Source of the DNA: an uncultured Actinomycetota bacterium | Lineage (GTDB): Bacteria; Actinomycetota; Actinomycetes; Mycobacteriales; Geodermatophilaceae | Assembly: GCA_963748305.1 (NCBI GenBank) | Contig: CAVVIN010000008.1 | Span: 181,798-245,797 of the forward strand | Reading direction: 5' to 3' | DNA: 64,000 nucleotides | In this document: piece after piece, positions 2,159 through 44,462 of the stretch | How positions within the stretch are numbered: position 1 is the first letter of the stretch | Layout: each line of letters starts with the position of its first letter | Notes under the pieces: model-generated | The model's input: only the letters and a program-made list of their open reading frames with translations | The model's database searches: none | Told to the model about the DNA's origin: nothing | Made by a program: the position numbers and the translations under genes

Positions 2159-2402
2159 GACATGGGGATGCGCACCTGTAGTCAGGTGCGTCCCCGGTAG
2201 ACCGGAACCGGCAGACGGCCGGACGGAGAGGTCACCTTCAGCAGTGTAGGGAGGTAGCGAGACTGCGTCCTACGGAAGCACCGGCCAATTGCCGCCCTGC
2301 GAGGCGGCGTGAGGAGTGCGGGCCGGGCTCCCCGACGAGCGACGGCTGGGGCTCAATGCTCCGGGGGACGGCCTGCCGCGGTGCGGTCCGGAGGATCCAA
2401 GG

Positions 2403-3545
2403 TTATTGCAGCGTGAACGTGCCGGTCTGGGGGTCGTTCTCGGCGGGGAGGTAGAGCCGTTGCACAGCCGCCAGGACGGCGTGCGCGATCGTGCTGCGCA
2501 GCCGGGCGTCGAGCAGCAGGAGGCGGTCGACGGGATGGGACAGGTAGCCGCAGTCGAGCCGGACGGCGGGCATGCGGGTCATCCGCAGCAGGTCCCACAC
2601 CTTCGGGTGCGAGCCGAGGTCGAGCATGCCCGTGCGGGCGATGACCTCGCGGCGCACCAGGTTGGCGAACTGCTCCCCCACCGTGGACGAGACGCCCGAG
2701 CCGGTGCCGTAGTAGTAGCTGGCCACCCCGCGGGCGTGCTCGGAGCCGTGCGCGTCCATGTGCAGGGAGACGAACAGGTCGGCACGGGCGTCGTTGGCGA
2801 AGTTGGTGCGCTCGGCCAGGGAGGGGTTCTGGTGCCGGCCCCGGGTGAGGAACACCTGTGCCCCCGCCGCGGCCAGCCGGCCCTCGATGCGCGACGCGAG
2901 GTCGAACACCAGATCGGACTCGGTGGTCTCCCCCTCGACGAAGCCGGTCTCCAGGCCGCCGTGCCCCGGGTCGACGACGATGCGCCGGCCGATCAGGTGC
3001 GGACCACTGTCGACGAACGAGGCGCTCTGCCGCAGCAGCTGGGGGCGTCCGCCGGTGACCTTCCGGCCGAGCTGGCGCAGTGCCCGCAGCGTGGCCGGGC
3101 CGCAGGTGCCGTCGGAGGTGAGCCCGTAGTCGCGCTGGAAGGCGCGCAGCCCGACCTCGGTCTCCGGGCCGAGGATGCCGTCGGCCCGGCCGGCGTCGTA
3201 GCCGAGCTCGAGCAGCCGCTCCTGCAGGCTGGTGACGTCGTCGCCGCGCATGGGCCGGTCGGGGTCGTAGCGCAGCAGCCGGTCACCGAGCGACCAGCGC
3301 GCCTCCGACAGCGCCCGGTAGGTCTCCTCGCCGACCCGGCCGTCGACCGAGAGGCCGCGGACCTGCTGGAAGTGGCGGACGGCGACCTCGGTGGCCGCGT
3401 CGTACTCCGCGGACTCGAGGCTCTCGCCGTCGGTCATCGGGACGTCGTCGGGCAGGAGGCCGAGGATGCGCAACGAGACCTGGACGTCAGCCACCGCCGG
3501 TCCCCGGTCCCCGAGTCTGAGGGGCTGCATGCTGTCGGTTCCCAT
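2403..3545 (-). CDS. cwlM: N-acetylmuramoyl-L-alanine amidase with two N-terminal peptidoglycan-binding repeats (CwlM-like)
   Basis: Intact 380-aa ORF. Two PG_binding_1-like repeats (GDRGPAVADVQ, GILGPETEVGLRAFQ) are followed by an Amidase_3 domain (VVDPGHGG...SLHMDA). It sits next to trxA-trxB as in Mtb Rv3915. Confidence 0.8.
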   Translation of the reverse strand: MGTDSMQPLRLGDRGPAVADVQVSLRILGLLPDDVPMTDGESLESAEYDAATEVAVRHFQQVRGLSVDGRVGEETYRALSEARWSLGDRLLRYDPDRPMRGDDVTSLQERLLELGYDAGRADGILGPETEVGLRAFQRDYGLTSDGTCGPATLRALRQLGRKVTGGRPQLLRQSASFVDSGPHLIGRRIVVDPGHGGLETGFVEGETTESDLVFDLASRIEGRLAAAGAQVFLTRGRHQNPSLAERTNFANDARADLFVSLHMDAHGSEHARGVASYYYGTGSGVSSTVGEQFANLVRREVIARTGMLDLGSHPKVWDLLRMTRMPAVRLDCGYLSHPVDRLLLLDARLRSTIAHAVLAAVQRLYLPAENDPQTGTFTLQ

Positions 3546-3650
3546 TCACAGCTCCGCTGGGGAACTGGAGAGCTTCGCCTGTCTCGTCATCGTCTGCCGA
3601 TTGTCGTCCCCGCGACATCGTCCGGCCCATCGGGGTGCGGTGAACGCGCC

Positions 3651-3684
3651 GCGGGCCCGTCCCTCCAAGGAGGAACGGGCCCGC
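3651..3684 (-). terminator. GC-rich hairpin downstream of trxA (16-bp stem with one mismatch, 2-nt loop)
   Basis: gcgggcccgtccctcc aa ggaggaacgggcccgc, about 45 nt after the trxA stop. Actinobacterial I-shaped terminator type without a U-tract. Confidence 0.45.
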
Positions 3685-3729
3685 GGCCCGTCCCGGGTCC
3701 CGCCCTGAGCGTGCAGGGGAGGTCCTTTG

Positions 3730-4056
3730 TCAGATGAAGTCGGCGAGGTCGCTGAGGATCGCGCCCTTGGGCTTGGCGCCGATGATGCTCTTGACCGGCT
3801 TGCCGCCCTGGAAGACGGTCATCGTCGGGATCGACATGACCTGGTAGTCACGCGCGATCTGCGGGTTCTCGTCGATGTTCAGCTTGGCGATGGTGAGCTT
3901 GTCGCCGTGCTCGGCCGCGATCTCCTCGAGTACCGGGGCGACCATCTTGCACGGGCCGCACCACTCCGCCCAGAAGTCGACGAGCACGGGCTTGTCACTG
4001 CCCAGCACGTCGCTCGCGAAGCTGGAGTCGGTGACCTTCACGGTGTTGCCTGCCAT
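3730..4056 (-). CDS. trxA: thioredoxin
   Basis: 108 aa with the WCGPC active site: FWAEWCGPCKMVAPVLEEIA. Confidence 0.9.
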   Translation of the reverse strand: MAGNTVKVTDSSFASDVLGSDKPVLVDFWAEWCGPCKMVAPVLEEIAAEHGDKLTIAKLNIDENPQIARDYQVMSIPTMTVFQGGKPVKSIIGAKPKGAILSDLADFI

Positions 4057-4151
4057 GGAACGTTCTCCCTCTGGTGGTCGGGCGGTGGGCCCGCACGGTT
4101 CAACCGGTCTAGCGGTGGATGTATGCCCGGCCCGTCCGGGAGCTGGTCGGC

Positions 4152-5195
4152 TCAGCGCTCGTCGAAGACCTCGGCGAGCCAGCGCTCGGCGTCGATACCG
4201 GCGGCCGCACCGGTGCCGGCCGCGGTGATCGCCTGCCGGTAGATGTGGTCGACGACGTCGCCACAGGCGAAAACACCGTCGATGTTGGTGCGGGTCGTGG
4301 GGTGCTCGACCTGGATGTAGCCGTTGTCGTCGAGCTTGAGCTGCCCGGCGAAGAGCTCGCTGCGCGGGTCGTGGCCGATCGCGACGAACAGGCCGGTCAC
4401 CGGCAGGGTCTCGGTGTCGCCGGTCGTGACGTCGGTGAGCTCGACGCCGGACACCGTGGTCTCGCCGACCACGTCGGTGACCTGCTTGCCCAGGGCCCAG
4501 CGGATCTTCACGTTGTCCTGTGCGCGCTTCTGCATGATCTTGGAGGCGCGCAGCTCGGGCCGCCGGTGCACGACGGTGACGCTCTTGGCGAACCGGGTGA
4601 GGAAGGTGGCCTCCTCCATCGCGGAGTCGCCCCCGCCGACGACCACGATGTCCTGGTCGCGGAAGAAGAACCCGTCGCAGGTGGCACAGGCCGACACGCC
4701 ACGGCCGAGCAGGCGGGACTCGTTGTCCAGGCCCAGGTACCGGTACTTCGACCCGGTGGCCACGATGACGGCGTGCGCGAGGTGCTCCTCGTCCCCGACC
4801 TTGACGACCTTCGGGTTGGCCGTGAGGTCGACCTCGGAAACGTCCCGCGGGACGAGTTCGGCGCCGAAGCGCTCGGCCTGGCCGCGCATGTCGTCCATGA
4901 GCTGCGGGCCCTGGATGCCCTCCCGGAAACCGGGGAAGTTCTCGACCTCGGTGGTGGTCATGAGGGCGCCGCCGAACTGCGAGCCCTCGAAGACCAGCGG
5001 GTGGAGGTTCGCCCGCGCTGCGTAGACGGCGGCGGCGTAGCCGGCCGGTCCGGAGCCGATGATGATCAGGTCGCGGACGCCGTCGTGCTCGGCCGGCGGG
5101 ATCACCGGCTGCACGTGGTCCGCCGTCACGGCGGGGCCGGGGGTCGGGTGCTGTGTCGTCACGGGGGGCACAACCTCAGATCCTAGGGGCGGCAT
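4152..5195 (-). CDS. trxB: thioredoxin-disulfide reductase. The true start is probably downstream of the first M in the ORF.
   Basis: [19 protein letters not shown]...CATCDGFFF...GIFACGD. FAD/NADPH-binding and redox-active CxxC motifs. The roughly 40-aa Pro-rich N-terminal extension in the ORF is probably not translated. Confidence 0.85.
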
Positions 5196-5252
5196 TCCCC
5201 CGGCGCGCTGCCCGTCCGCGCCGCTGAGCAGCGGTGGCCTGCCGGCGGGCGG

Positions 5253-7199
5253 TCAGCCGGCGGAGAGGATCGACACCTCGGCGAGGCCGGCGTTGAAGCC
5301 GTCGCCGCCCTCGACGAGACCGGTGACCCAGACCAGCACGTAGCGGGTCGTGACGGCCTCGTCGAAGGTGAACTCGCTGGTGCCCTCGACGGCGCCCGAG
5401 CCGGCGGTGGCGTAGCTGTCGAGCTCGCCGTCGGAGGAGTCGCCGGTGCGGATCTCCACCGTCGCGCCCGGGGTGGTCGAGGTGACGGTGACGCCGGCGA
5501 GCGACTGCTCGGAGCCCAGGTCGTAGAGCACGCCGACGCCGGGCTTGAGGTTGCCGAACGCCGGGGAGCCGCGGTAGTTCAGCGTCGTCCACGCGGTGGC
5601 CGGGTCGCCGTCGTAGGACTGCGGGACGTCGCCGTTGTTCTCGGGCTCGCCGTCCCCGAAGGGGTCGAACACGTCGGCCGCCGCGATCTGCACGGGGTCC
5701 CCGGCGGCGACCGGCTCCTCCTCCGCGGGCGCGCTGCTGGACGCACCGCCGCCGCCGGACGGCGTCGAGCCGACGTTGTCGTCGACGGAGCCGGTCACCG
5801 ACAGCAGGGTGTTGCCGATCCAGAGGGCGAGCGCGACGACGACGGCCAGGGCCAGCAGCGGCAGGCCGATCACCAGCAGGCGACGGCGCGGCGAGGTGGT
5901 GTCGGTCTCCTCGGTCGTCGGCCCGGCGTCGGTGTACGGGCCGCGCTGGTACTCGTCGAGCTCGCGGTCGCTGAGGACGCCGAACGGCTCGTCGTCGTAG
6001 CCCTCGTCCGCGTAGCCGTACCCGTCGTCGTACCGGCCGTCGTCCTGCGCCCCGGCGGACCGGCCCACCGGCGGGGGTGGGGCGTACGCGCCCGCGACCG
6101 GGACGACGGTGGAGGCGTTGATCGTGTCGCCGTCGACGGCCTCCGGGGGGACCGGGCGGCCGAGGGGGCGGACCGGCGGGACGGGGGGCATCGTCTGCGG
6201 ATCCATGCGGTCCGGCCCGGCGGTCAGCGCGTCCGGGGTCACCGTGCCGGGGGCGTCCGTGTCGACGTCCTGGATGACGGTTTCCGGGGCCCGGCCAGGG
6301 ATGACGCCGGCGGTGCCGGCCGCGGCGGCGGCCTTGCGGTCGCGCATGCGCCGGCGCCAGCCGCCCTCGTTCTCCTCGGGGGCGCGCTGGGGCTGGGTGC
6401 TGACGGAGACGCCGGAGCGCGGGCGCTCCTTGAGCAGCGAGGCCATCGCCGCGACGCTGGTGATCGCCTGACCCGGCTCGGTCGACCGCGCGCGCCGGAC
6501 GAGGGCGAGCAGGTCGGAGGAGCCGGTGAGGGGGCGGGGGCTCTGGTCCTCGCCCGAGGGCAGCCCGGTCAGGCAGGCCTCGAGCAGGGCGCCGAGCGCG
6601 GCGATGTCGCCGTCGACGGTTCCGGTGGCGGCGGGCACCGCGCGCAGGCCCACGAGGCCGTTGGGCCGCAGCACGACGTTGTCCGAGCTCAGGCCACCGA
6701 CGGCCAGGCCGACCCGGTGCGCCTCGGCGACGCCCTCCGCCAGGCGGCGCAGGACGGTGCGGACGTCGCGCTCGGGAAGCGGCCCGCGGGCCAGCCGCTC
6801 GGTCAGCGTCTCGCCGTCGATCCACTCGTTGACGACGTAGGCGGCACCGCCGGGGGCGGTGGGGTCGCCGGTGCCCTCGGAGGCGTCGTAGACCATCGCG
6901 AGGGCCGGGGTGGCCAGGCCGCCGGCCGTCAGGGCGCGGGTGATCCAGGCGTGCGCGGCCGGGCCGGCCGGGGTGTGCACGCGGATGGCGACGTCGCGGT
7001 TGAGGACGCGGTCCTTCGCGCGCCAGCAGCGGATGACGCCGGTGGGTGTCGGTTCGTCGGGTCCCACCTGGTCCAGTGGCCGGTAGCGGTCCGGAAGGCC
7101 GGTGGTCGTCGACGTCATCGACACTGTCGACCCCCAGTCCTGTCCCAGCCGCCGGCGCGATTGCTCCGGCGTGGATGCGTGCTCCGGTACCCCGGTCAT
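5253..7199 (-). CDS. MviN-associated Ser/Thr pseudokinase with a transmembrane helix and an extracellular C-terminal domain. It is homologous to the C-terminal half of Mtb MviN (Rv3910) but is a separate gene here.
   Basis: Starts MTGVPEHASTPEQ... with a kinase-like fold (YRPLDQVG...VIRCWRAKDRVLNRDVAIRV...NEWIDGETL), then a TM segment (LLVIGLPLLALAVVVALALWI), then an extracellular domain. The ATG overlaps the murJ stop (ATGA). Confidence 0.6.
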   Translation of the reverse strand: MTGVPEHASTPEQSRRRLGQDWGSTVSMTSTTTGLPDRYRPLDQVGPDEPTPTGVIRCWRAKDRVLNRDVAIRVHTPAGPAAHAWITRALTAGGLATPALAMVYDASEGTGDPTAPGGAAYVVNEWIDGETLTERLARGPLPERDVRTVLRRLAEGVAEAHRVGLAVGGLSSDNVVLRPNGLVGLRAVPAATGTVDGDIAALGALLEACLTGLPSGEDQSPRPLTGSSDLLALVRRARSTEPGQAITSVAAMASLLKERPRSGVSVSTQPQRAPEENEGGWRRRMRDRKAAAAAGTAGVIPGRAPETVIQDVDTDAPGTVTPDALTAGPDRMDPQTMPPVPPVRPLGRPVPPEAVDGDTINASTVVPVAGAYAPPPPVGRSAGAQDDGRYDDGYGYADEGYDDEPFGVLSDRELDEYQRGPYTDAGPTTEETDTTSPRRRLLVIGLPLLALAVVVALALWIGNTLLSVTGSVDDNVGSTPSGGGGASSSAPAEEEPVAAGDPVQIAAADVFDPFGDGEPENNGDVPQSYDGDPATAWTTLNYRGSPAFGNLKPGVGVLYDLGSEQSLAGVTVTSTTPGATVEIRTGDSSDGELDSYATAGSGAVEGTSEFTFDEAVTTRYVLVWVTGLVEGGDGFNAGLAEVSILSAG

Positions 7200-14467: not shown

Positions 14468-15420
14468 ATGTGCCGTCCCGACCCGAGTTCCCACCCGAGT
14501 GGGCAGTCGCGCGCCGTGCAGGATCTCCGCGACCGAGGCGTGAGCAACGCCAGCGTCAGGACCGCGGTCCGGGCCGGTCGTTGGCAAGAACCCGTCCGCG
14601 GCGTCGTCGTCCCGCACTCGGGTCCTCTGACACAACGCGAGCGATGGCTGGTGGCCCTCGCCTTCGCCGGTCCGGAGGCGTGCCTCTCCCACCGGAGCGC
14701 ACTACGGCTGTGGGGGGCGAAAGCCGAGGAACTTTCCGCCGCGCGACGGGTGGCCGGAGTGCTCGGCGACTTCCATGCCCCAGCGGACGGCGGCATGGTC
14801 GAGGTGTCCCGTATCCATGGCCAACACATGGCATCGCACGGGTTCGTCGTCGTCCATCAGAGCCGCAGGCCAATCGAAGCCGTCACGTTGTCAGGACTGC
14901 GGTCCACCAACGCAGCCCGAGCCGCCATCGATGTTGCGCTCACCGCACAGCGGCGCGCGGACGTGGACCACGTTATCGCCGACGTCCTGCAGAAGGGTCT
15001 CGCGAACGTCGAGTCGCTCGTCGAGGAGACGCGTCAGGCCGGCCGGCTTGCAACCTCCTGGCTCAGGGCAGCGGTGGCCGATGCGGGTCGTGGGATGCGC
15101 TCGGTCGGCGAGAGCGATCTACGCCGCGTCGTGCTGGCTGCAGGCCTGCCTGAGCCCGAGTGGAACGCGCCGATCGAGACTGCGACCGGGACGTACCACG
15201 TCGACGCCTTGTGGCGGGCCAAGCGGGTCGCGGCCGAGGCGGATGGACGGGCCTACCACCTGAACGCCCGCGACTGGGCCGCCGATCTGCGGCGCCAGAA
15301 CGCGATCCACGGTGCGGGTGTGGTGCTCCTGCGCTTCCCGGTGCGGCGGCTCCGCTTCGAGCCGGTGGGCATGTGGACGCGAGATGTACGTGCTCGTCGC
15401 ATGAGAGGAGTGGATTTGTG
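14468..15420 (+). CDS. DUF559-type protein with an N-terminal AbiEi-like (DUF4095-like) domain. The 3' end is uncertain.
   Basis: The first roughly 310 aa of ORF 14468-17554 read VRTAVRAGRWQEPVRGVVVPHSG...ACLSHRSALRLWG...HVDALWRAKRVAAEADGRAYHL...LLRFPVRRL. The remainder of that giant ORF is an antisense read-through of the MFS gene plus the YqgE gene. Confidence 0.55.
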
Positions 15421-29435: not shown

Positions 29436-29553
29436 AGTTGTGCAGATCGGCGTGCACACCGGTGTTGGACGCCGCCCCTCCACCTTCCTAACGTCCTCCT
29501 CAGCTGCCGCCGGGCGCGCGGGGAAATGTCGGTGCCCGGCGGTAGCAATATCC

Positions 29554-29649: not shown

Positions 29650-31019
29650 GTGGCGGTGGCCGACGACTTCAGCCGACCGTCCGCGACGGCACCGGCCTAC
29701 GACCGGCAGCCGCCGCAGGACGTCGCAGCGGAGCAGTCGGTACTCGGCGGCATGCTGCTCAGCAAGGACGCGATCGCCGACGTGGTCGAGGTGCTGCACG
29801 GCCCCGACTTCTACCGCCCGGCGCACCAGGTGATCTTCGACTGCATCCTCGACCTGTACGGGCGGGGTGAGCCGGCCGACGCGATCACCGTCGCCGCCGA
29901 GCTCAACCGGACCGACCAGCTGTCGAAGATGGGCGGTGCGGTCTACCTGCACACGGTCATCCAGTCCACGCCGACGGCGGCCAACGCCGGCTACTACGCG
30001 GCGATCGTCGCCGAGCAGGCCGTGCTCCGGCGCCTGGTCGAGGCGGGCACCCGCGTCGTGCAGCTCGGCTACGGCGCGGCCGGCGGCAAGGGCGACGTCG
30101 ACGACATCGTCGACCGCGCGCAGCAGGAGATCTACGACGTCACCGAGAAGCGCATGAGTGAGGACTACTCGCGCCTCGAGGACATCCTGCAGCCGACGAT
30201 GGACGAGCTCGACGCCATCGCCTCACGGGGCGGGGTCAGCCGCGGTGTGCCGACCGGCATCCGCGACCTCGATGAATTGACCAACGGCCTGCAGGCCGGA
30301 CAAATGATCGTCATTGCGGCCCGACCTGGAGTCGGCAAATCAACGCTGGGTCTTGACATTGCGCGTTCCGCATCCGTAAAACACCATTTGCCCGCCGCGA
30401 TCTTCCGCTGGAAATGAGCAAGCACGAGATCACCATGCGTCTGCTCTCCGCAGAGGCGAAGGTGCCGCTGCACCACATGCGCGCCGGCACGCTCTCGGAC
30501 GAGGACTGGTCGAAGCTGGCCCGCCGCATGGGCGAGATCGCCGATGCGCCGCTCTACATCGACGACTCCCCCAACATGACGATGATGGAGATCCGCGCCA
30601 AGGCACGGCGGCTGAAGCAGCGCAACGACCTCAAGCTCGTGGTCATCGACTATCTCCAGCTGATGACATCGGGCAAGCGCGTCGAGAGCCGCCAGCAGGA
30701 GGTCTCGGAGTTCTCGCGTGCCCTCAAGCTACTGGCAAAGGAAATTGAAGTGCCGGTAATTGCAATGAGTCAGCTGAACCGGGGTTCAGAACAAAGGCAA
30801 GATAAAAAGCCAATGCTGTCGGACCTTCGCGAATCCGGATCGATCGAACAAGATGCGGATATGGTCATGATGATTCACCGGGAAGATATGTACGAGAAGG
30901 AATCTCCGCGGGCCGGCGAGGCCGACATCATGCTGGTCAAGCACCGTAACGGTCCCACCGCGAACGTCACGGTGGCCTTCCAGGGCCACTACAGCCGCTT
31001 CGTGGACATGGCGAACTGA
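29650..31019 (+). CDS. dnaB: replicative DNA helicase DnaB with no intein. One frameshift near 30398 (a missing T in ttc[t]cgctg).
   Basis: N-terminal ORF 29650-30417 (QSVLGGMLLSKDAIADVVEVL...IAARPGVGKSTLGLDIARSA). C-terminal ORF 30414-31019 (MSKHEITMRLLSAEAKV...LVVIDYLQLM...IAMSQLNRGSEQRQDKKPMLSDLRESGSIEQDADMVMMIHRED). Confidence 0.9.
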
Positions 31020-36924: not shown

Positions 36925-37530
36925 TCAGGCCCGGCGGAGCACGGCGACCAGGAAGTGCGCCTCGGGTGTGAACGGTTGCAGGTCCCAGGTGGCCAGCAGC
37001 AGGTCGACCGCCCAGCCCGCGCCCGCCGCGTCGGCGAGGAACTCGTCGAAGAGATATCCCCGGTCGGCGCCGAAGCCGATGGCTGCCCGGCCGCCGTCGA
37101 CGACGTGGGCCCGCAGCCGGCGCAGCACCTCCTGGCGCGTCGACGGGGCGAGGAACGTCATCACGTTGCCGGCGCACACGATCGCGTCGAACGGCTCCGG
37201 GACGCCGGCGGCCGGCAGATCCAGCGTCGGCCAGGTCTCCGACCAGCCAGCGGGCGGCCGGGTGCTCGCGCTCCGCCTCGGCGATCAGCACCGGGTCGAC
37301 GTCCACCCCGACGACGTCGTGGCCCACCGAGGCGAGGTACGCCGCCGATGCGGCCCGGGCCGCAGCCCGCGTCGAGCACGCGGGCCCGGCGGCCCAGCAT
37401 CGCGTCGACCAGGCGGGCCTCACCCACCAGGTCCATCCCCTGGGCGGCGAGGTCGCGGAACCGCTGGATGTAGGCGGCGGAGTGCTCCGGGTTCTCCTGC
37501 GTCATCCGCACCCAGGCGCTCTGCTCCGTC
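36925..37530 (-). CDS. class I SAM-dependent methyltransferase (two or more frameshifts)
   Basis: N-terminus MTEQSAWVRMTQENPEHSAAYIQRFRDLAAQGMDLVGEARLVDAMLGRRARVLDAGCGPGRIGG (tail of ORF 37161-38294). Then pieces in 36782-37423 (VGVDVDPVLIAEAEREHPAARWLVGDLAD) and 36925-37179. Confidence 0.55.
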
Positions 37531-37552
37531 ATGCGGTCACCCTCGCATGCGG

Positions 37553-38903
37553 TCAGGGCGCCTCGGGCCGCCAGTCCGGTGGATCGGCGGCGTGCAGGGC
37601 GGGGTCGTCCGCGGCGAAGGTGCGCACCGGCCCCGGCGGCGGTGAGCGGCCCCTCGAACCGGACGGTGACCCGGCCGAGGCCGCGGCCCCACACCCAGCC
37701 GGGCCCAGCTCGTCGTGCCGCACGTCCTGCCCCGGCCACCAGCGCCGCTCGACGCGACGGCGGCTCCGGGGCCGCCGGGCGCGTGGACCGCACGGACCGG
37801 GGTGGCGTCGTCCTCCGGCTCGTCCGTCCTCGGCGAACAGGTCGCCCTGCGCGTACAGCGACAGACCGGAGACCCCGACGCCGAGCAGCCGCAGGCCGCC
37901 GGCGGTGCCCGCCTCGTCGAGCAGCCGCTGCGCGATGCCGGCGATCTGGCGGGGGTCGTCGGTGGGCTGGGGCAGGGTCTGCGAGCGGGTGAGCGTCGTG
38001 AAGTCGTAGCGGCGCAGCTTGAGCGTCACGGTGCGGCCGGAGTACGCCGAGGCCCGCAGCCGGCCGCCGACGCGGGCCGCCATCGCGTCGATCTCCCGGC
38101 CGAGCACGGCCAGGTCGGTGAGGTCGCGCTCGAACGTCTCCTCGTGCGACACCGACTTGGTCTCCCGGTCGGGGACGACGGCGCGGTCGTCCTCCGCCCG
38201 GGCCAGCTGGTACAGCCCCGCGCCGTGCGCCCGGCCGGCCAGCGCGACCAGGTCCGTGCAGCGAGCGCGCGGCGAGGTCGCCGACCGTCTTCACGCCGAT
38301 CGGGTGCAGCCGCTCGGCGGTGGCCGGGACCCACGCCGCCGAGCTGCGTGACCGGCAGCGGGTGCAGCACGTCGAGCTCGGTCCCCGGCGGCGACGACGA
38401 CCAGCCCGTCGGGCTTGTCCATGTCCGAGCCGAGCTTGGCCATCAGCTTCGAGCTGCCGATGCCCACCGAGCCGGTCACCCCGCCGGTCGCCTCGCGATC
38501 CGCTCCTTGAGGGCCCGGGCGAGCGCCGTCACGCCCTCGACCGACAGGTCGGCCCCTCGTCCGGCGGCCAGGTCGACGTACGCCTCGTCGATCGACGCCG
38601 GCTCCACCAGCGGGGAGAGCTCGCGCAGCAGCCCCATGACGACGTCGGACGTGGCCCGGTACGCGGCGAACCGGCCGCCGAGGAACGCCGTCCCCGCGGG
38701 GCACCGGCGCCGGGCCTCGGCGGTCGACATCGCCGACCGCGCGCCGTAGGCCCGCGCCTCGTAGGAGGCGGTCGCGACGACGCCGCGGCCGCCCACCCCG
38801 CCGACGACGACCGGCCGGCCCCGCAGCGAGGGCTTGTCGCGCTGCTCGACGGCGGCGAAGAAGGCGTCGAGGTCCAGGTGCAGGACGCTGGCCTCCCGCC
38901 GCA
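37553..38903 (-). CDS. dinB: DNA polymerase IV (Y-family), with two or more frameshifts
   Basis: N-terminus in ORF 38476-39366 ([36 protein letters not shown]...SIDEAYVDL). C-terminal little-finger region in ORF 37553-38152 (...[20 protein letters not shown]...). Confidence 0.75.
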
Positions 38904-38999
38904 TGCCCCCATGATCGCCCGGGCGCACGGCGGGCGTCGATCCGGCCGTCCGTTCCACCGCGCGAGGGAATTGCTTGCCGCGTCGTGCGGAACTGCGAG

Positions 39000-39590
39000 T
39001 CTCCGGTCCGACGACGGAGGAGGCGCGCGGAGTGGACGCCATGGCGGTGCTTCCTGGTCGTCGGCGCCATCGGCGGGTCGTCCTGCTGCTCTCGCTGGTC
39101 GTCGGCGAGATCGGCGGGCCTGCACCTGGCGGTCGACGCCGACGGGCCCGTTCTCCGTCGCCGGCGGTCGCCGCGCTGCTCGGCGGGGTCGGCTTCGGCG
39201 GTGCCGCCGCGACCGCGTTGCTGCCGGAGGCGCTGTCCGACGGCCTGACCGGGCTGCTGGCCCTCCTCGTCGGCCTGGCCGTCGCGGTCCCCCTGGCCTG
39301 GGGGCGGTCCGGCTCTCCCGGCGCCTGCAGGACATGCCGACGGCCGAGACGCTGACCCGCCACCACCTGGTCGGCGCGCAGGGCGTCGTCGTCTCCGCGG
39401 TCCCAGCCCCGGCTTCGGCGAGGTGCGGCTGAACGTGGCCGGCCAGCACCTGAAGTACTCCGCCCGCAGCGACGTCCCGCTGCCGGCCGGCACGCCCGTC
39501 TACGTCGTCGAGGCGCTCAGCGAGACCGCCGTCGAGGTCGTCTCGACCGCCCCCGATCCCAGGACTCCCCGATGCCGAACCACAGCCCGA
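39000..39590 (+). CDS. NfeD-family membrane protein (short form with an OB-fold C-terminus). Frameshifted. Upstream partner of the flotillin gene.
   Basis: TM segments in ORF 38975-39355 ([13 protein letters not shown]...[12 protein letters not shown]). OB-fold tail in 39423-39611 ([40 protein letters not shown]). Confidence 0.4.
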
Positions 39591-41184: not shown

Positions 41185-41481
41185 ATGGCAGATCGGTGCA
41201 CGCACCTGGGCACCGTCCAGGACGTCACGCCCTCGAGTGACGGATGCGAGGACTGCCTGCGCACCGGCGGCCGCTGGGTGCACCTGCGCCTGTGCATGCG
41301 GTGCGGCCACGTCGGCTGCTGCGACAGCTCACCGAACCGGCACGCGACGGCGCACAACCGCGAGCATCCGGACCATCCGCTGATCCGGTCGTACGAGCCG
41401 GGGCAGGACTGGTGGTGGTGCTACGTCGACGAGGTCACGTTCGAGGTCGACGGCGCGCGGCCGGCGCCGTCACACCCCTGA
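41185..41481 (+). CDS. UBP-type zinc-finger (ZnF-UBP) domain protein
   Basis: Intact 98 aa, Cys/His-rich: CTHLGTVQDV...CEDCLRTGGRWVHLRLCMRCGHVGCCDSSPNRHATAHNREHPDHP...WWWCYVDE. Confidence 0.6.
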   Translation: MADRCTHLGTVQDVTPSSDGCEDCLRTGGRWVHLRLCMRCGHVGCCDSSPNRHATAHNREHPDHPLIRSYEPGQDWWWCYVDEVTFEVDGARPAPSHP

Positions 41482-41483
41482 GC

Positions 41484-43235
41484 TCAGTCCTCCGTCAGCG
41501 CCTGCGCGGGCAGCCAGTCGGCGTCGAGCAGCTCGGCGATCTCCTGCAGCGACGAGGTGTCGGCCCCGGCCGTCGACCCGCTGACGGCCAGCCGCTCGAC
41601 CATCACGCGGGCGACCTGCTCCTCGACGGTGTCCTCGGCGAAGGCGATCCGCCACGGCGAGCTGCGCCCGTCGCGGTGGGTGCGGCCGGTGACCTGCCGG
41701 GCCTGGATGCCGGAGAAGCGGGGCTGGTGGAACAGGCCGACGCGCGGCAGTTCCGACGCCGTCGAGCCGTCGGGCAGCAGCTCGCCCGCGTGCAGGCTGA
41801 TCGACGCCGTCACGGTGAAGACGCAGACCATCGCGTCGCCGCGCTGGAAGCGCAGCCGCTCGGCCTCGACATCGAAGCGGTCCCGGCCGTAGATGCCGGC
41901 CACCGGGATGCCGGCGTCGAGCAGGGCCTCCCGGATCGGGTCGGCGGCGGTCTCGACGAACTCGACCGACACCGCGACCTGCCGCTCGGCCTCGACCTGC
42001 GAGCGCACCCAGTCGACGGTGGCCTGCACGCGGATCAGGCCGGCCTTCTGCCGGAAGCGCATGAGCGCGGCCCGGCCCTTGGCGCTCTGCCGCGATCGCC
42101 GGGCCAGCTGCATCTCGGCGCGGAACTCCGACCACTCCGACTCGTAGGCCGCCCGCTCGGCCGGGGTCAGGGCCACCGCGGTGCCGGTCACCGACACCGG
42201 GCCCCACGGGGCCGGGCGGTGCAGCGTCGCCGGCGGATCGGCGTCGGCCAGCCACGACTGCAGCCGGGCCAGGTCGGCGCGGCGCTCGTCGGCGTCCTCG
42301 GTCCACTGCCAGCCGTAGCGGCCACGTTCCACGTGGAACCCGTGCGCGGACAGCCGCTTCGGCAGGTCGGCCCACTCGCGCAGCGCCTCGCCGTGCTGCT
42401 GCGCGAACTGGGGCGCCAGGTAGGGCAGCTCCAGCGGGGTGTGCGCCGGGGTGGCGGTCGCGGCGAGCACGAACGGCGCGTCCTTCGCGCGGGCGGCCCC
42501 GGAGACCGCCTTCCAGTGCTTCCACCGCTGGGTCGTGGTGTGCCGCACCATGTGCGCCTCGTCGGCGATGACGACGTCGAACCGGAGCTTGGACACCTTG
42601 GCCAGCCGGTCCCAGGTGGTGACGCACCAGCGCAGCCCGCCGTCACCGAACCCGGCGATCGAGCGCGCCCAGTGCGGGATCGTGATCGCGGCCGGACGGT
42701 CGGCCACCACCAGCACCGTCCGGACGTCGCGCTGCTCGGCGATCAGCCGCGCGGCGAGGATCGCGGTGCCGGTCTTGCCGACGCCCGGGTCGTCGCCGAG
42801 CAGGAAGACCCGGCCGCCGGCCGCGGCGTGCGCGGCGACCACGTCGGCGCCGTCCCACTGCAGGTCGCGCGGCGTCATGGGACGGGCGATCGGCAGCGGC
42901 CGGGGCTTCTCGTTGAGCTCGTCCTCGAGGAAGCGCTCGAGCGTGTACGGCGGCGGGTCGTAGGGCGCCAGTTCGGGCGGCAGGTCGGGGCCGACCCAGA
43001 CGTGCGCCTGCAGGCCGGGGTGCCAGACCGCTCCGGGCGCCGGCGCGCGGAAGGGCACCGACAGCACCCACACGCGCTCCCCCGGCCCCGCGGTGGGCAG
43101 CTCGAGAGCCGGCTTCGCGGCGCGCCGCGGCGCGGCCTTGGTGGCCTTCGCCGCCGCGCGGCGGCGCGGGGCCGACGCGGTCGTACGGGTGGTGCTGGCG
43201 CTCTTCGTCGTGGTGCGGCGCCGTCGTCCGGGCAT
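41484..43235 (-). CDS. superfamily-2 helicase of the strawberry-notch-like type with an N-terminal Lys/Ala/Pro-rich histone-H1-like tail
   Basis: ATG at 43235 with a GGAGG Shine-Dalgarno 6 nt upstream. MPGRRRRTTTKSASTTRTTASAPRRRAAAKATKAAPRRAAKPA. P-loop FLLGDDPGVGKTGTAIL (compare Sno FLxGDGAGVGKGR). DEAH box VVIADEAHMV. Motif V-VI TASISLHAG...QVTGRTHRDGRSSP (compare Sno QxFGRTHRSNQ). Intact 584 aa. Confidence 0.65.
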   Translation of the reverse strand: MPGRRRRTTTKSASTTRTTASAPRRRAAAKATKAAPRRAAKPALELPTAGPGERVWVLSVPFRAPAPGAVWHPGLQAHVWVGPDLPPELAPYDPPPYTLERFLEDELNEKPRPLPIARPMTPRDLQWDGADVVAAHAAAGGRVFLLGDDPGVGKTGTAILAARLIAEQRDVRTVLVVADRPAAITIPHWARSIAGFGDGGLRWCVTTWDRLAKVSKLRFDVVIADEAHMVRHTTTQRWKHWKAVSGAARAKDAPFVLAATATPAHTPLELPYLAPQFAQQHGEALREWADLPKRLSAHGFHVERGRYGWQWTEDADERRADLARLQSWLADADPPATLHRPAPWGPVSVTGTAVALTPAERAAYESEWSEFRAEMQLARRSRQSAKGRAALMRFRQKAGLIRVQATVDWVRSQVEAERQVAVSVEFVETAADPIREALLDAGIPVAGIYGRDRFDVEAERLRFQRGDAMVCVFTVTASISLHAGELLPDGSTASELPRVGLFHQPRFSGIQARQVTGRTHRDGRSSPWRIAFAEDTVEEQVARVMVERLAVSGSTAGADTSSLQEIAELLDADWLPAQALTED

Positions 43236-43319
43236 GGGACCTCCTGGTTCCGGCGACGGTAGATCGGGCTGCTGACGGTTCCGGGGAGGCTGGTCCGGAG
43301 CGTCGGTCCACTCCGGCGG

Positions 43320-44462
43320 GTGACGGGGTCCCGGACCGCCCGCGGCGCGGCTAGGTTGGCGCCAGTGGACATAGCGACGAGACCGCGCAGAACCACGTGC
43401 CGGCGGGCTCTGCTCGTGGCCGTGCTGGCCGTGGCGACCCTGCTGGTGCCGGGTGCTCCCGCGGCCGAGGCGGCGAACCGCACCATCACCTACTCGGTGA
43501 CCGCGCAGGGCACCGTGTCCGGCAACCTCGACCAGTTCGCGGCGGTGGCGGCGCAGACCTTCGCGGATTCCCGAGGATGGGGTCTCGGGGGCACGCTCGC
43601 GTTCCAGCGGGTGGCCTCCGGCGGGGAGTTCACGCTGATCCTGGCGTCGCCGGCCGTCGTGGGTGCCAACGCCGGCTGCGACAGCTACTACAGCTGCCGG
43701 GTGGGCCGGAACGTCTACATCAACGACGACCGCTGGCGCACCGGGACGCCGTCCTGGCCGTACGGCGTCCCGCTCTACCAGCAGTACGTGATCATGCACG
43801 AGGTCGGCCACTGGCTCGGCCTGGGTCACTCGAACTGCCCGGCCTCCGGCCGCAGCGCGCCGGTCATGCAGCAGCAGTCCATCTCGCTGCAGGGCTGCCG
43901 CTCCAACATGTGGCCGCTCATCGCCGAGCGCTCCCAGGTCGGGCGGAACACCGGGGTGCCGGTCAACTGGTCGGCCGTCGACCGGAAGTACATCGCGATC
44001 GGCCAGGAAGGCAGTGTGCTCGGCGGGCCGATCTTCTGGGAGCAGCCCACCGGCGGGCGCCCGGGCCGGTACCAGTCGTTCCAGGCGGGCACGATCTCCT
44101 GGTCGTCCGCGACCGGCGCCTTCGAGACGCACGGCCAGATCGACACCCGGTACCGCGCGACCGGCGGGTCCGGCGGCCCGCTGGCCTTCCCGACGACCGA
44201 CACCCGCGTCACCAGCGACCGGATCGGCCGGTTCAACCGGTTCAACGGCAACGCGGGCGGCGCGATCTTCTGGACGCCGTCGACCGGAGCCCAGGCGCTC
44301 TACGGTCCGATCTTCGCCCGGTGGGCGCAGCTGTCCTACGAGCGGGGACCGCTGGGTTACCCGACCAGCAGCGTGTACGAGGTCACCGGCGGGCAGCGGG
44401 CCGACTTCCAGGGCGGCTACATCCGCTGGGACCGCGCGACCGGGCAGACGACGGTCGGCTGA
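43320..44462 (+). CDS. secreted DUF3152-like putative Zn-metalloprotease domain protein with C-terminal LGFP repeats
   Basis: Signal peptide, HEVGHWLGLGH (HExxHxxGxxH), then repeated GGPIF/GPLAFP/GPLGYP LGFP-type motifs. Intact 380 aa. Confidence 0.55.
   Translation: MTGSRTARGAARLAPVDIATRPRRTTCRRALLVAVLAVATLLVPGAPAAEAANRTITYSVTAQGTVSGNLDQFAAVAAQTFADSRGWGLGGTLAFQRVASGGEFTLILASPAVVGANAGCDSYYSCRVGRNVYINDDRWRTGTPSWPYGVPLYQQYVIMHEVGHWLGLGHSNCPASGRSAPVMQQQSISLQGCRSNMWPLIAERSQVGRNTGVPVNWSAVDRKYIAIGQEGSVLGGPIFWEQPTGGRPGRYQSFQAGTISWSSATGAFETHGQIDTRYRATGGSGGPLAFPTTDTRVTSDRIGRFNRFNGNAGGAIFWTPSTGAQALYGPIFARWAQLSYERGPLGYPTSSVYEVTGGQRADFQGGYIRWDRATGQTTVG

Follow-up and report, generated by a model that had tools for sequence, protein, structure and literature searches.

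What does a compact, standalone helicase gene do on the chromosome of a stress-tolerant actinobacterium? The question is raised by a 64-kb stretch of Geodermatophilaceae DNA (~73% G+C; hereafter the window), whose closest protein matches are from Blastococcus and which encodes a 583-aa superfamily 2 (SF2) helicase on its minus strand. An earlier, sequence-only reading had taken this protein for a compact strawberry-notch (Sno) homologue which, together with a ZnF-UBP zinc-finger protein encoded next to it, would form a nucleoid-remodelling or defence module. Our analysis points elsewhere. The helicase is best assigned to an SNF2-like family of its own that has no name as yet, and a conserved element upstream of its gene leads us to predict that the chromosomal Geodermatophilaceae branch of this uncharacterised subfamily belongs to a LexA-independent DNA-damage regulon.

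A compact motor of the SWI2/SNF2 clade

The gene and its coordinates stand as first described; the product had been given as 584 aa because the stop codon was counted. Confidence values below are predicted local distance difference test (pLDDT) scores of an AlphaFold model built with a 36-sequence alignment (a single-sequence run gave a pLDDT of 34). The gene and the parts of its product are:

43235..41484, minus strand: helicase gene, ATG at 43235, stop codon at 41484..41486, 583 aa plus stop
43104..43235, minus strand: basic low-complexity tail, residues 1-44, rich in R, K, A, T and P (composition, pLDDT)
42906..43082, minus strand: diverged DUF5710-type domain, predicted beta-beta-beta-alpha, residues ~52-110 (family alignment, model)
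42216..42878, minus strand: ATPase lobe 1, residues ~120-340 (motifs; Pfam ResIII, SNF2-rel_dom and DEAD matches), with the Q motif at R123/Q126
42771-42785, minus strand: Walker A motif GVGKT of lobe 1, residues 151-155
42552-42563, minus strand: DEAH box of lobe 1, residues 225-228; motif III, TAT, is at residues 261-263
41487..42215, minus strand: helical insert, ATPase lobe 2 and short two-helix C-terminus (alignment; secondary structure from the model), with RFRQKA at residues 393-398
41667-41687, minus strand: motif VI of lobe 2, GRTHRDG, residues 517-523

All the strings quoted in the sequence-only reading are at their places: FLLGDDPGVGKTGTA in the P-loop region (residues 144-158), DEAH at residues 225-228, GRTHRDGRSSP at residues 517-527, and APRRRAAAKATKAAPRRAAKPA at residues 22-43 within the basic tail. 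ATPase motifs Q, I, II, III and VI are intact, T155 included. The query keeps the family-invariant residues of lobe 1 (Q126, G151, G153, K154, D225, E226 and T262) and of lobe 2 (G450, R498, R518 and R521). The basic, histone H1-like nature of the N-terminus is also confirmed, with 14 K/R against one acidic residue (D/E) in residues 1-51, and residues 1-39 are predicted to be disordered (pLDDT <50). The DUF5710-type domain is modelled with a pLDDT of 72-94. The Pfam model for DUF5710 (PF18974) finds no match in the query at E up to 10. It is matched by 29 of 72 relatives (best E 8.7e-10), which align with the query column for column, and scores 22-24 bits in the relatives scanned in detail (cut-off 26.5 bits). 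The aligned family block is VLDVPxxxRxxAxxxGAxW...LPxxLxxY, in which L58 and P61 of the query are nearly invariant. Taking sequence and model together, the protein most likely belongs to the SWI2/SNF2 clade as an ATP-driven translocase on DNA whose catalytic residues are intact.

A HMMER search of 1.84 billion cluster representatives retrieved 616 clusters at E<=1e-3 and 159 at E<=1e-30, with members mostly of 540-660 aa. They form an uncharacterised family of ~600 clusters, in which an optional basic tail and a DUF5710-type N-terminal domain precede an SNF2-like core. The alignment of 72 full-length members (A1) has the N-domain consensus VLDVPxxxRxxAxxxGAxW...G..LP..L..Y and, in the SF2 core, R..Q, GFLLADxVGLGKT, P..V.P.W, DESHxLKN..S.R, SATAGQ.PLEL.YL, RFRQKA and Q.EGR.HRDG; all its invariant residues are kept in the window helicase. 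Member by member, these 72 sequences match the following Pfam models at E <0.01:

ResIII: 69/72 members, best E 2.6e-14
SNF2-rel_dom: 67/72 members, best E 4.9e-21
Helicase_C: 45/72 members, best E 2.6e-11
AAA_34: 38/72 members, best E 1.4e-7
DUF5710: 29/72 members, best E 8.7e-10
Helicase_C_4: 28/72 members, best E 1.2e-9

A short helicase with such a tail had been thought unusual. Within its own family it is the norm, since 31 of the 72 representatives have a tail of at least 15 aa with at least 20% K/R, and three tailed representatives match the Pfam histone H1-like model HC2 (8e-15).

When the family profile was searched against all PDB sequences, the top matches were SNF2/Rad54-type ATPases (1z63 at 1e-26, then HELLS, DDM1, INO80 and ISWI). 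The profile was needed for this, as a single-sequence search with the query returned nothing relevant. The modelled helicase has two RecA-like lobes and an SNF2-type fold that is closest to solved SNF2 motors: the list of solved chains gives Ino80 22.1, CSB 21.9, SNF2h 21.0, CHD4 20.3, ALC1 19.1, SsoRad54 18.7 and ZorD 17.2, with HsdR and XPB as the best non-SNF2 chains at 16.1 each. A search of the viral folds in BFVD found only generic SNF2 helicases of phages and giant viruses, at 18% identity or less. In Pfam, the query matches ResIII at 35.7 bits, DEAD below threshold, and SNF2-rel_dom (PF00176) at 20.5 bits for the whole protein and 24.2 bits for the excised lobe (cut-off 24.9); the N-terminal 131 and the C-terminal 239 residues, scanned separately, have no Pfam match.

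The family consensus shares LADxxGLGKT, P..V...W, DExH..KN..S and R.HR.G with SWI2/SNF2 proteins (PF00176 plus PF00271; SsoRad54 1z63, Rad54, INO80 and CSB). It differs from them in being much shorter (583 aa for the helicase), in lacking chromatin-type accessory domains and in having a DUF5710-type domain and a basic tail as its N-terminal part. Canonical SNF2 motors have TGTP as motif III and DRAHRIGQ as motif VI, whereas this family has SAT/TAT and GRxHRDG.

The likeness to Sno proteins (SBNO; PF13872 plus PF13871) is real at the level of motifs. Motif VI of the helicase is of the GRTHR type, its P-loop stands in a GDxxGVGK context, and its relatives weakly match both Sno models. Membership is another matter. 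When the query was scanned in three separate parts, AAA_34 (PF13872, cut-off 27) touched 16 residues with a score of 11.4 bits, and Helicase_C_4 (PF13871, cut-off 30.5 bits) has no match in it at E up to 10. Among ten relatives scanned in detail, SNF2-rel_dom exceeds its cut-off in eight (up to 57 bits) and AAA_34 in none (best 25.3 bits), and SNF2-rel_dom scores higher in every relative that matches both. Helicase_C_4 exceeds its cut-off in one of the ten (30.9 bits). Over lobe 2 the relatives match Helicase_C and, weakly, Helicase_C_4, of which only profile positions 46-157 of 271 are aligned. Sno proteins belong to the same broad SWI2/SNF2 clade, and their defining feature is a winged helix-turn-helix (wHTH) domain at the C-terminus, SnoC (PMC5512222). 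The helicase has no SnoC, since the ~48 residues that follow lobe 2, modelled as two helices, leave no room for it. It is, moreover, neither fused nor linked to methylases, unlike Sno. As all tests of membership fail, the strawberry-notch label is not supported.

A damage-type promoter element upstream of the gene

In mycobacteria, most DNA-damage-inducible genes are activated independently of LexA by PafBC, via the RecA-NDp promoter (PMC5656591, PMC6789036, PMC8223512). The consensus of this promoter is tTGTCRgtg-8 nt-TAnnnT (PMC5656591), and the system "extends to other Actinobacteria" (PMC6789036, PMC8223512). An element of this type (tTGTCRgtg-N8-TAnnnT) lies at a promoter-like distance upstream of the helicase:

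43276..43256, minus strand: RecA-NDp/PafBC-type promoter-like motif GTCAGCA-GCCCGATC-TACCGT (N8 spacer), with the -10 element ending 20 nt before the ATG

The site occupies 20-41 nt 5' of the helicase ATG on the coding strand and is the sole match to the loose pattern GTCRG-N10-TANNNT in the window, where ~0.74 would be expected. We fetched 79 metagenomic loci of close relatives, located their starts and compared 45 orthologous upstream regions. An exact match to the loose pattern is found in 28 of the 45, at -27 to -60 from the start codon, most commonly in the form CGTCGGTG-CCGCCGCT-TACCGT (N8 spacer). The background is 1.26 matches per 100 kb on both strands (1.19 Mb of other high-G+C loci), so that ~0.0007 would be expected in each upstream region. 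Of the 34 distinct variants of this region, many agree with GTCRGTG-N8-TAnnnT at 10 of its 10 specified positions despite differing flanks; examples are four Modestobacter loci (L085, L115, L117 and L123). Another locus, L108, shares the flanks of the window site (CCGGAACCGTC...CTACCGTCGC), and the window site is clearly orthologous to these better sites.

The prediction of a promoter rests on the exact loose pattern together with orthology. Relaxed matches carry no weight in it: a search of the window allowing two mismatches gave 25 matches against 18 expected, which is noise. The comparison of upstream regions was anchored on the motif, and a whole-region MAFFT alignment of four of them was uninformative. 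Upstream of family members outside Geodermatophilaceae, we found only noise-level matches to the motif, which fits the recruitment of the chromosomal copy into the regulon of its host. The elements upstream of the helicase orthologues share GTCRGTG-N8-TAnnnT with promoters of the PafBC regulon and differ from them in having C rather than T before GTC. The helicase family is not reported as a member in the PafBC-regulon literature cited here, and its membership is our prediction.

Two other sites resemble this element. In the window, 29527-29548 (plus strand) reads TGTCGGTG-N8-TAGCAA, ~100 nt 5' of a dnaB-like open reading frame (ORF) that starts near 29650; it comes close to the RecA-NDp consensus, having A for the last T. 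The DnaB orthologue of one collected locus (L001) carries a LAGLIDADG intein. In the Modestobacter locus L085, GTCGGGG-N8-TAGCCT (2328-2348, plus strand) lies 27 nt 5' of a gene for a 1091-aa protein with SNF2 and Helicase_C domains (2355-5630), so that a damage-type promoter of this kind may serve another SNF2-type helicase as well.

A core gene of Geodermatophilaceae

The helicase is a vertically inherited, standalone core chromosomal gene of Blastococcus and Geodermatophilaceae. Identity to its orthologues is 81-92% across Blastococcus, Geodermatophilus, Modestobacter and Trujillonella, and 81-89% over the three genera in which synteny was seen, a conservation comparable to that of a neighbouring phosphoglucomutase-type (PGM) gene. 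The region is syntenic with the chromosomes of Blastococcus saxobsidens, Geodermatophilus and Modestobacter, in line with the original description of the gene as chromosomal and free of mobile-element hallmarks. The helicase genes of B. saxobsidens, Geodermatophilus sp. and Modestobacter roseus all have one and the same alpha/beta-hydrolase gene as their divergent neighbour, with PGM and flotillin genes close by. The gene on the 3' side of the helicase varies (alcohol dehydrogenase and thiamine genes in one genome, a Laminin_G_3 protein gene in two others), and we found no conserved partner gene. A literature search for an SNF2 helicase in Geodermatophilaceae returned no reports.

A proposed DNA-damage-induced translocase

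Bacterial SNF2-type motors, RapA apart, are known mostly from defence and mobile-element contexts. Our best reading of this one, to which we give a probability of about one half, is a DNA-damage-induced translocase on double-stranded DNA that remodels protein-DNA complexes or branched DNA. Lying behind a RecA-NDp-type promoter, the gene would be switched on by PafBC after DNA damage. The protein would then translocate on double-stranded DNA in the manner of SNF2 motors of the Rad54, CSB and SMARCAL1 type, with stalled forks, recombination intermediates or stalled polymerases as candidate substrates. Its disordered basic tail (~44 residues) would most likely tether it non-specifically to DNA, and the diverged DUF5710-type domain would most likely serve as a targeting or interaction module. 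The data show the fold, the intact motifs, the make-up of the family, the synteny and conservation of the gene and the conserved promoter motif; we infer that damage induces the gene through PafBC, on which DNA the protein acts, and what its tail and DUF5710-type domain do. A DNA- or nucleoid-remodelling activity is plausible because the fold is that of SWI2/SNF2 proteins.

The family as a whole has a flavour of DNA metabolism that favours this reading: DUF5710 is fused to Rep_3 proteins, some members have RNase H, DnaN and recombinase genes as neighbours, others carry inteins, and some paralogues are coupled to Cascade genes. Several points weigh against it. The induction by damage and the biochemical activity are what we infer from sequence and model, and the query, at 20.5 bits, stays below the Pfam cut-off of 24.9 bits for SNF2-rel_dom. 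A role in conflict or defence would agree equally well with the family members on plasmids and beside Cascade genes. The window site itself matches 8 of the 10 specified positions (GTCAGCA, not GTCGGTG), and its score alone is at the noise level of control regions; it owes its credibility to its orthology with better sites, such as that of L108. An exact loose match is lacking in 17 of the 45 orthologous upstream regions, and B. saxobsidens has GTCCCCA at the position. Close relationship among many of the 45 regions brings the count of independent lineages down to nearer 8-10. TAnnnT is also a generic actinobacterial -10 element. Finally, the reading presumes that PafBC is encoded in this genome and that recA in Geodermatophilaceae uses the motif too.

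If the reading is right, a compact SNF2-like core gene of a stress-tolerant actinobacterial family, with a DNA-damage-type promoter, would be a new player in the LexA-independent (PafBC) response, and DUF5710 would gain its first functional context. A bolder version is conceivable, although we hold it to be doubtful. The helicase would be the founding chromosomal example of an unrecognised kind of bacterial SNF2 repair motor, Rad54/SMARCAL1-like, with DUF5710 for targeting and an H1-like tail, captured from megaplasmids into the PafBC regulon of the radiation- and desiccation-tolerant Geodermatophilaceae; its sister branches would be the missing motor of the Cas3-less I-E Cascade systems on Streptomyces plasmids.

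Relatives on plasmids and next to Cascade genes

The family is present on actinobacterial megaplasmids, phage-like contigs and chromosomes. Its genes occur in 33 plasmid records, of which 15 are from Rhodococcus, 13 from Streptomyces and one each from Corynebacterium, Dietzia, Bosea, Euzebya and Frondihabitans. A genome scan with another family alignment (A3) gave at least 13 true family loci. Most of the matches listed cover residues ~140-269 at 24-36% identity, and no Geodermatophilaceae orthologue is among the matches listed. The literature on the telomeric transposon and its TtrA helicase proved not relevant to the family. For DUF5710, the sole literature found describes its fusion to Rep_3 plasmid replication initiators in Acinetobacter (PMC11233732); a tblastn search of plasmids with the isolated DUF5710 segment retrieved the same helicase family only and no new fusion partners.

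On Rhodococcus and Dietzia megaplasmids, two conserved ORFs flank the helicase gene, a small one upstream (31% identity) and one of ~370 aa downstream (42% identity). RNase H, DnaN and tyrosine-recombinase genes lie close to it on plasmids of Rhodococcus, Corynebacterium and Dietzia: an RNase H family gene in Rhodococcus and Corynebacterium, DnaN and a tyrosine recombinase in Corynebacterium. The megaplasmid loci compared are L087 7342-11068, L091 7546-11036 and L088 5356-9635. Some members are interrupted. Among 150 representatives, 27 (~18%) are enlarged to 720-1100 aa by inteins that carry LAGLIDADG homing endonucleases. The insertion sites number three or more and lie within the P-loop, behind DExH and in lobe 2 (e.g. 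P0252, P0253, P0254, P0269 and P0325 in alignment A2).

On three Streptomyces plasmids, a full-length family helicase overlaps the start of cse1-cas7-cas5e-cas6e by 4 nt (L090 7938-15148, NZ_CP109454; L096 6617-13121, NZ_CP108060; L097 6566-12899, NZ_CP109401). These paralogues are 27-30% identical to the window helicase, and the S. cellulosae copy aligns over its full length, N-domain included. TPR/STAND-like genes lie upstream, and none of cas3, cas1 and cas2 is annotated in the loci. In L090, 8-10 direct repeats with a period of 61 nt follow just downstream (14536-15148). Koonin and Makarova (2022, PMC8730458) have described a derived Streptomyces I-E module with STAND proteins, devoid of Cas3, adaptation module and array, in a passage that names no helicase. 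The family would add to such Cas3-less I-E Cascade and STAND loci (PMC8730458) a paralogue translationally coupled to cas8e-cas7-cas5-cas6 on Streptomyces plasmids, which could explain how these derived CRISPR systems act on DNA. The window gene differs from these paralogues in having no Cas neighbours and in belonging to another, chromosomal branch.

One clade, found in Nocardioides and Brachybacterium, shares 62% identity with the window helicase; its members are 82-93% identical among themselves across two orders, with unrelated, ordinary chromosomal flanks. At the nucleotide level, the helicase gene is 80-82% identical between Brachybacterium, three Nocardioides genomes and the record MT835526, and the flanks are wholly unrelated (L004 7823-9646, L005 8013-9659, L006 8031-9696, L015 3530-5175 and L086 16560-18385). 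These sequences suggest that the solitary gene of this clade has recently moved horizontally. We dismissed MT835526 ("Bacteriophage sp.", UNVERIFIED), the sole match in the phage database, as evidence of a phage origin, as it is an unannotated contig that shares the helicase gene alone with Brachybacterium and Nocardioides.

Alternative roles

These mobile relatives suggest that the helicase might be the motor of a conflict system. As an effector of defence or counter-defence it would be directed at phages or plasmids and act alone or with unlinked partners, resembling the Cascade-coupled paralogues or the SNF2-type ATPases that DISARM, Zorya and BREX employ. The family is frequent on actinobacterial megaplasmids (the 33 plasmid records), a distant member shares its contig with a resolvase, TnpB and rIIA/rIIB-like genes, the Euzebya copy is surrounded by methyltransferases and DpdB, and the Streptomyces paralogues overlap Cascade genes by 4 nt downstream of TPR/STAND-like genes. 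Single-gene transfer in the Nocardioides/Brachybacterium clade and weak local PADLOC matches (PDC-M27C, the best, at 28 bits, BrxHI and ZorD) point the same way. However, the NCBIfam and PADLOC matches of the query are short and local; those of PADLOC span ~55 residues around the DEAH box only, and DrmD of NCBIfam scores 12.7 against a cut-off of 610. We found no full-length match to DISARM DrmD, Zorya ZorD, BREX BrxHI/HII or PDC-M27, and none of their partner genes nearby. The Geodermatophilaceae gene is syntenic, core, 81-92% identical and outside variable islands. A defence partner is adjacent to it in none of the chromosomal loci examined, the neighbours in the window being genes for flotillin, ZnF-UBP, a DUF3152-LGFP protein, a hydrolase and PGM, and the upstream motif is of the DNA-damage type. 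We consider this role unlikely for the chromosomal gene.

The motor could also be coupled to transcription, like RapA/HepA or CSB/Mfd, with stalled RNA polymerase as its target in place of DNA structures. RapA/HepA is, like the helicase, a bacterial chromosomal SNF2-type ATPase; the query has a faint match to its NCBIfam model (PRK04914, E 0.006), and a damage-regulated remover of stalled RNA polymerase would fit the promoter. That match, however, amounts to 14.8 bits against a cut-off of 576, and the helicase is ~400 aa shorter than RapA and lacks its N-terminal domains. Its own N-terminal part is the DUF5710-like domain plus basic tail, in which Pfam scans identified no domain that binds RNA polymerase, and the structural likeness to CSB is limited to the common motor. 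Hence, we regard such a function as quite unlikely.

A third alternative makes the gene a domesticated helper of plasmid replication or maintenance, a megaplasmid relic that aids replication initiation or fork progression and whose link to damage is secondary or spurious. Beyond the ~62% clade of Nocardioides and Brachybacterium, the nearest relatives found are indeed on megaplasmids of Rhodococcus, Corynebacterium and Dietzia (41-47% identity), and the plasmid copies are accompanied by RNase H, DnaN and recombinase genes and by the conserved flanking gene pair. The fusions of DUF5710 to Rep_3 initiators (PMC11233732) are of the same flavour, and in the Corynebacterium and Bosea plasmid records the gene is within a few kb of the record start. 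Yet the partner genes seen on plasmids are all missing from the window and from the other chromosomal loci, the chromosomal gene is far from any plasmid-like context, and its strong conservation argues for a current function in the host. We find this origin of its present role improbable and prefer the damage-induced translocase to all three alternatives.

An incidental zinc-finger neighbour

The weakest explanation is the module from which the analysis started. The neighbouring gene indeed encodes a standalone ZnF-UBP protein and is convergent with the helicase:

41185..41481, plus strand: standalone ZnF-UBP gene, 98 aa, an unrelated neighbour with no part in the function of the helicase

The protein matches PF02148 at 43.7 bits (3.3e-11; cut-off 22.7). 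Such proteins had been said to be rare in bacteria. They are in fact numerous: 7999 of 8000 scored candidates matched, at 73-87% identity, including proteins of Acidimicrobiia and many Actinomycetes, and the solved bacterial homologue 2IDA aligns with the window protein end to end (E 5.3e-32). The protein shares the Cys/His pattern of PF02148 with 2IDA and with the ZnF-UBP domains of eukaryotic USP and HDAC6 proteins, and differs in being a single-domain protein. A literature search for ZnF-UBP in Actinobacteria returned no reports.

In the HMMER alignment, GCCDSS of the window protein stands opposite GCGRNS of USP16, with Asp for Arg; in this it resembles USP33, which has Glu there (GCGESQ). 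The Arg of the GCGR of USP16, in the pocket for the Gly-Gly tail, contacts the C-terminus of ubiquitin, and USP33 is not known to bind ubiquitin. It is thus doubtful that the window protein binds Gly-Gly tails.

The association with the helicase does not recur. Among 53 metagenomic loci from close relatives that extend 350 nt or more 3' of the helicase, the ZnF-UBP gene follows it in 2, and the gene is absent from all 85 collected loci, 17 of which are of family members outside the window; conversely, at three loci of ZnF-UBP homologues on long contigs there is no helicase nearby. In a nucleotide alignment with B. saxobsidens, the closest of the genomes compared, the interval from the flotillin block to the helicase holds 4.7 kb of unrelated genes there and the ZnF-UBP gene alone in the window. 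The ZnF-UBP gene is an incidental neighbour, adjacent by chance. At two of the three other loci, all of them actinobacterial, it is translationally coupled to a DUF5996 gene (L093 5001-6211 and L095 4076-5297); the two DUF5996 genes are 66% identical, and the window has none.

A Sno homologue working with ZnF-UBP as a nucleoid-remodelling or defence module is thus very improbable, being largely refuted already by these co-occurrence counts: the adjacent gene ends, 2 nt apart, and the Sno-like motifs, with AAA_34 and Helicase_C_4 touched (E <0.01) by 38 and 28 of 72 relatives, are outweighed by Sno models that stay sub-threshold in the query and nearly all relatives, by the missing SnoC wHTH, by GCCDSS where USP16 has GCGRNS, and by ZnF-UBP genes that elsewhere lack a helicase neighbour and lie beside DUF5996 at two of three loci. 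Of the two findings that were to refute the sequence-only reading, the lack of co-occurrence is borne out, and a placement of the helicase among ordinary RecG or RapA proteins is not. The idea of a ubiquitin-finger plus helicase module can be dropped.

Gene layout and neighbours

The remaining features around the helicase are:

43240..43245, minus strand: Shine-Dalgarno sequence AGGAGG, 4 nt before the helicase ATG (direct sequence reading)
43320..44462, plus strand: gene for DUF3152 and three LGFP repeats, divergent neighbour upstream of the helicase, with a weak zinc-metallopeptidase signature

The helicase gene is monocistronic, with a divergent gene on its 5' side and a convergent one on its 3' side, and has a strong Shine-Dalgarno sequence of its own, both as described at the outset. 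Its ATG at 43235 is supported by metagenomic fragments of orthologues, whose N-termini also start with MPGRRRR. The stop codons of the helicase and ZnF-UBP genes are 2 nt apart (41479-41486). We found no terminator-like structure between or near them, so their transcripts must run into each other. Consensus scans of the region (75% G+C) for sigma-70 promoters and terminators found nothing, and no mobile-element hallmark is present near the helicase.

A divergent promoter region of 84 nt is common to the helicase and the DUF3152-LGFP gene. The latter is followed by the alpha/beta-hydrolase gene and then by the PGM gene; an SPFH/flotillin gene lies upstream of the ZnF-UBP gene, on the far side from the helicase. 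In B. saxobsidens, Geodermatophilus and Modestobacter, the helicase and hydrolase genes adjoin directly, which indicates that the DUF3152-LGFP gene between them in the window is a lineage-specific insertion.

At 37161-39493 (minus strand) of the window, the chosen ORFs have no Pfam match. The region is 79-83% identical at the nucleotide level to the DinB/IMS (Pol IV) gene of three relatives. Either the frames were chosen wrongly or the gene is disrupted in this genome.

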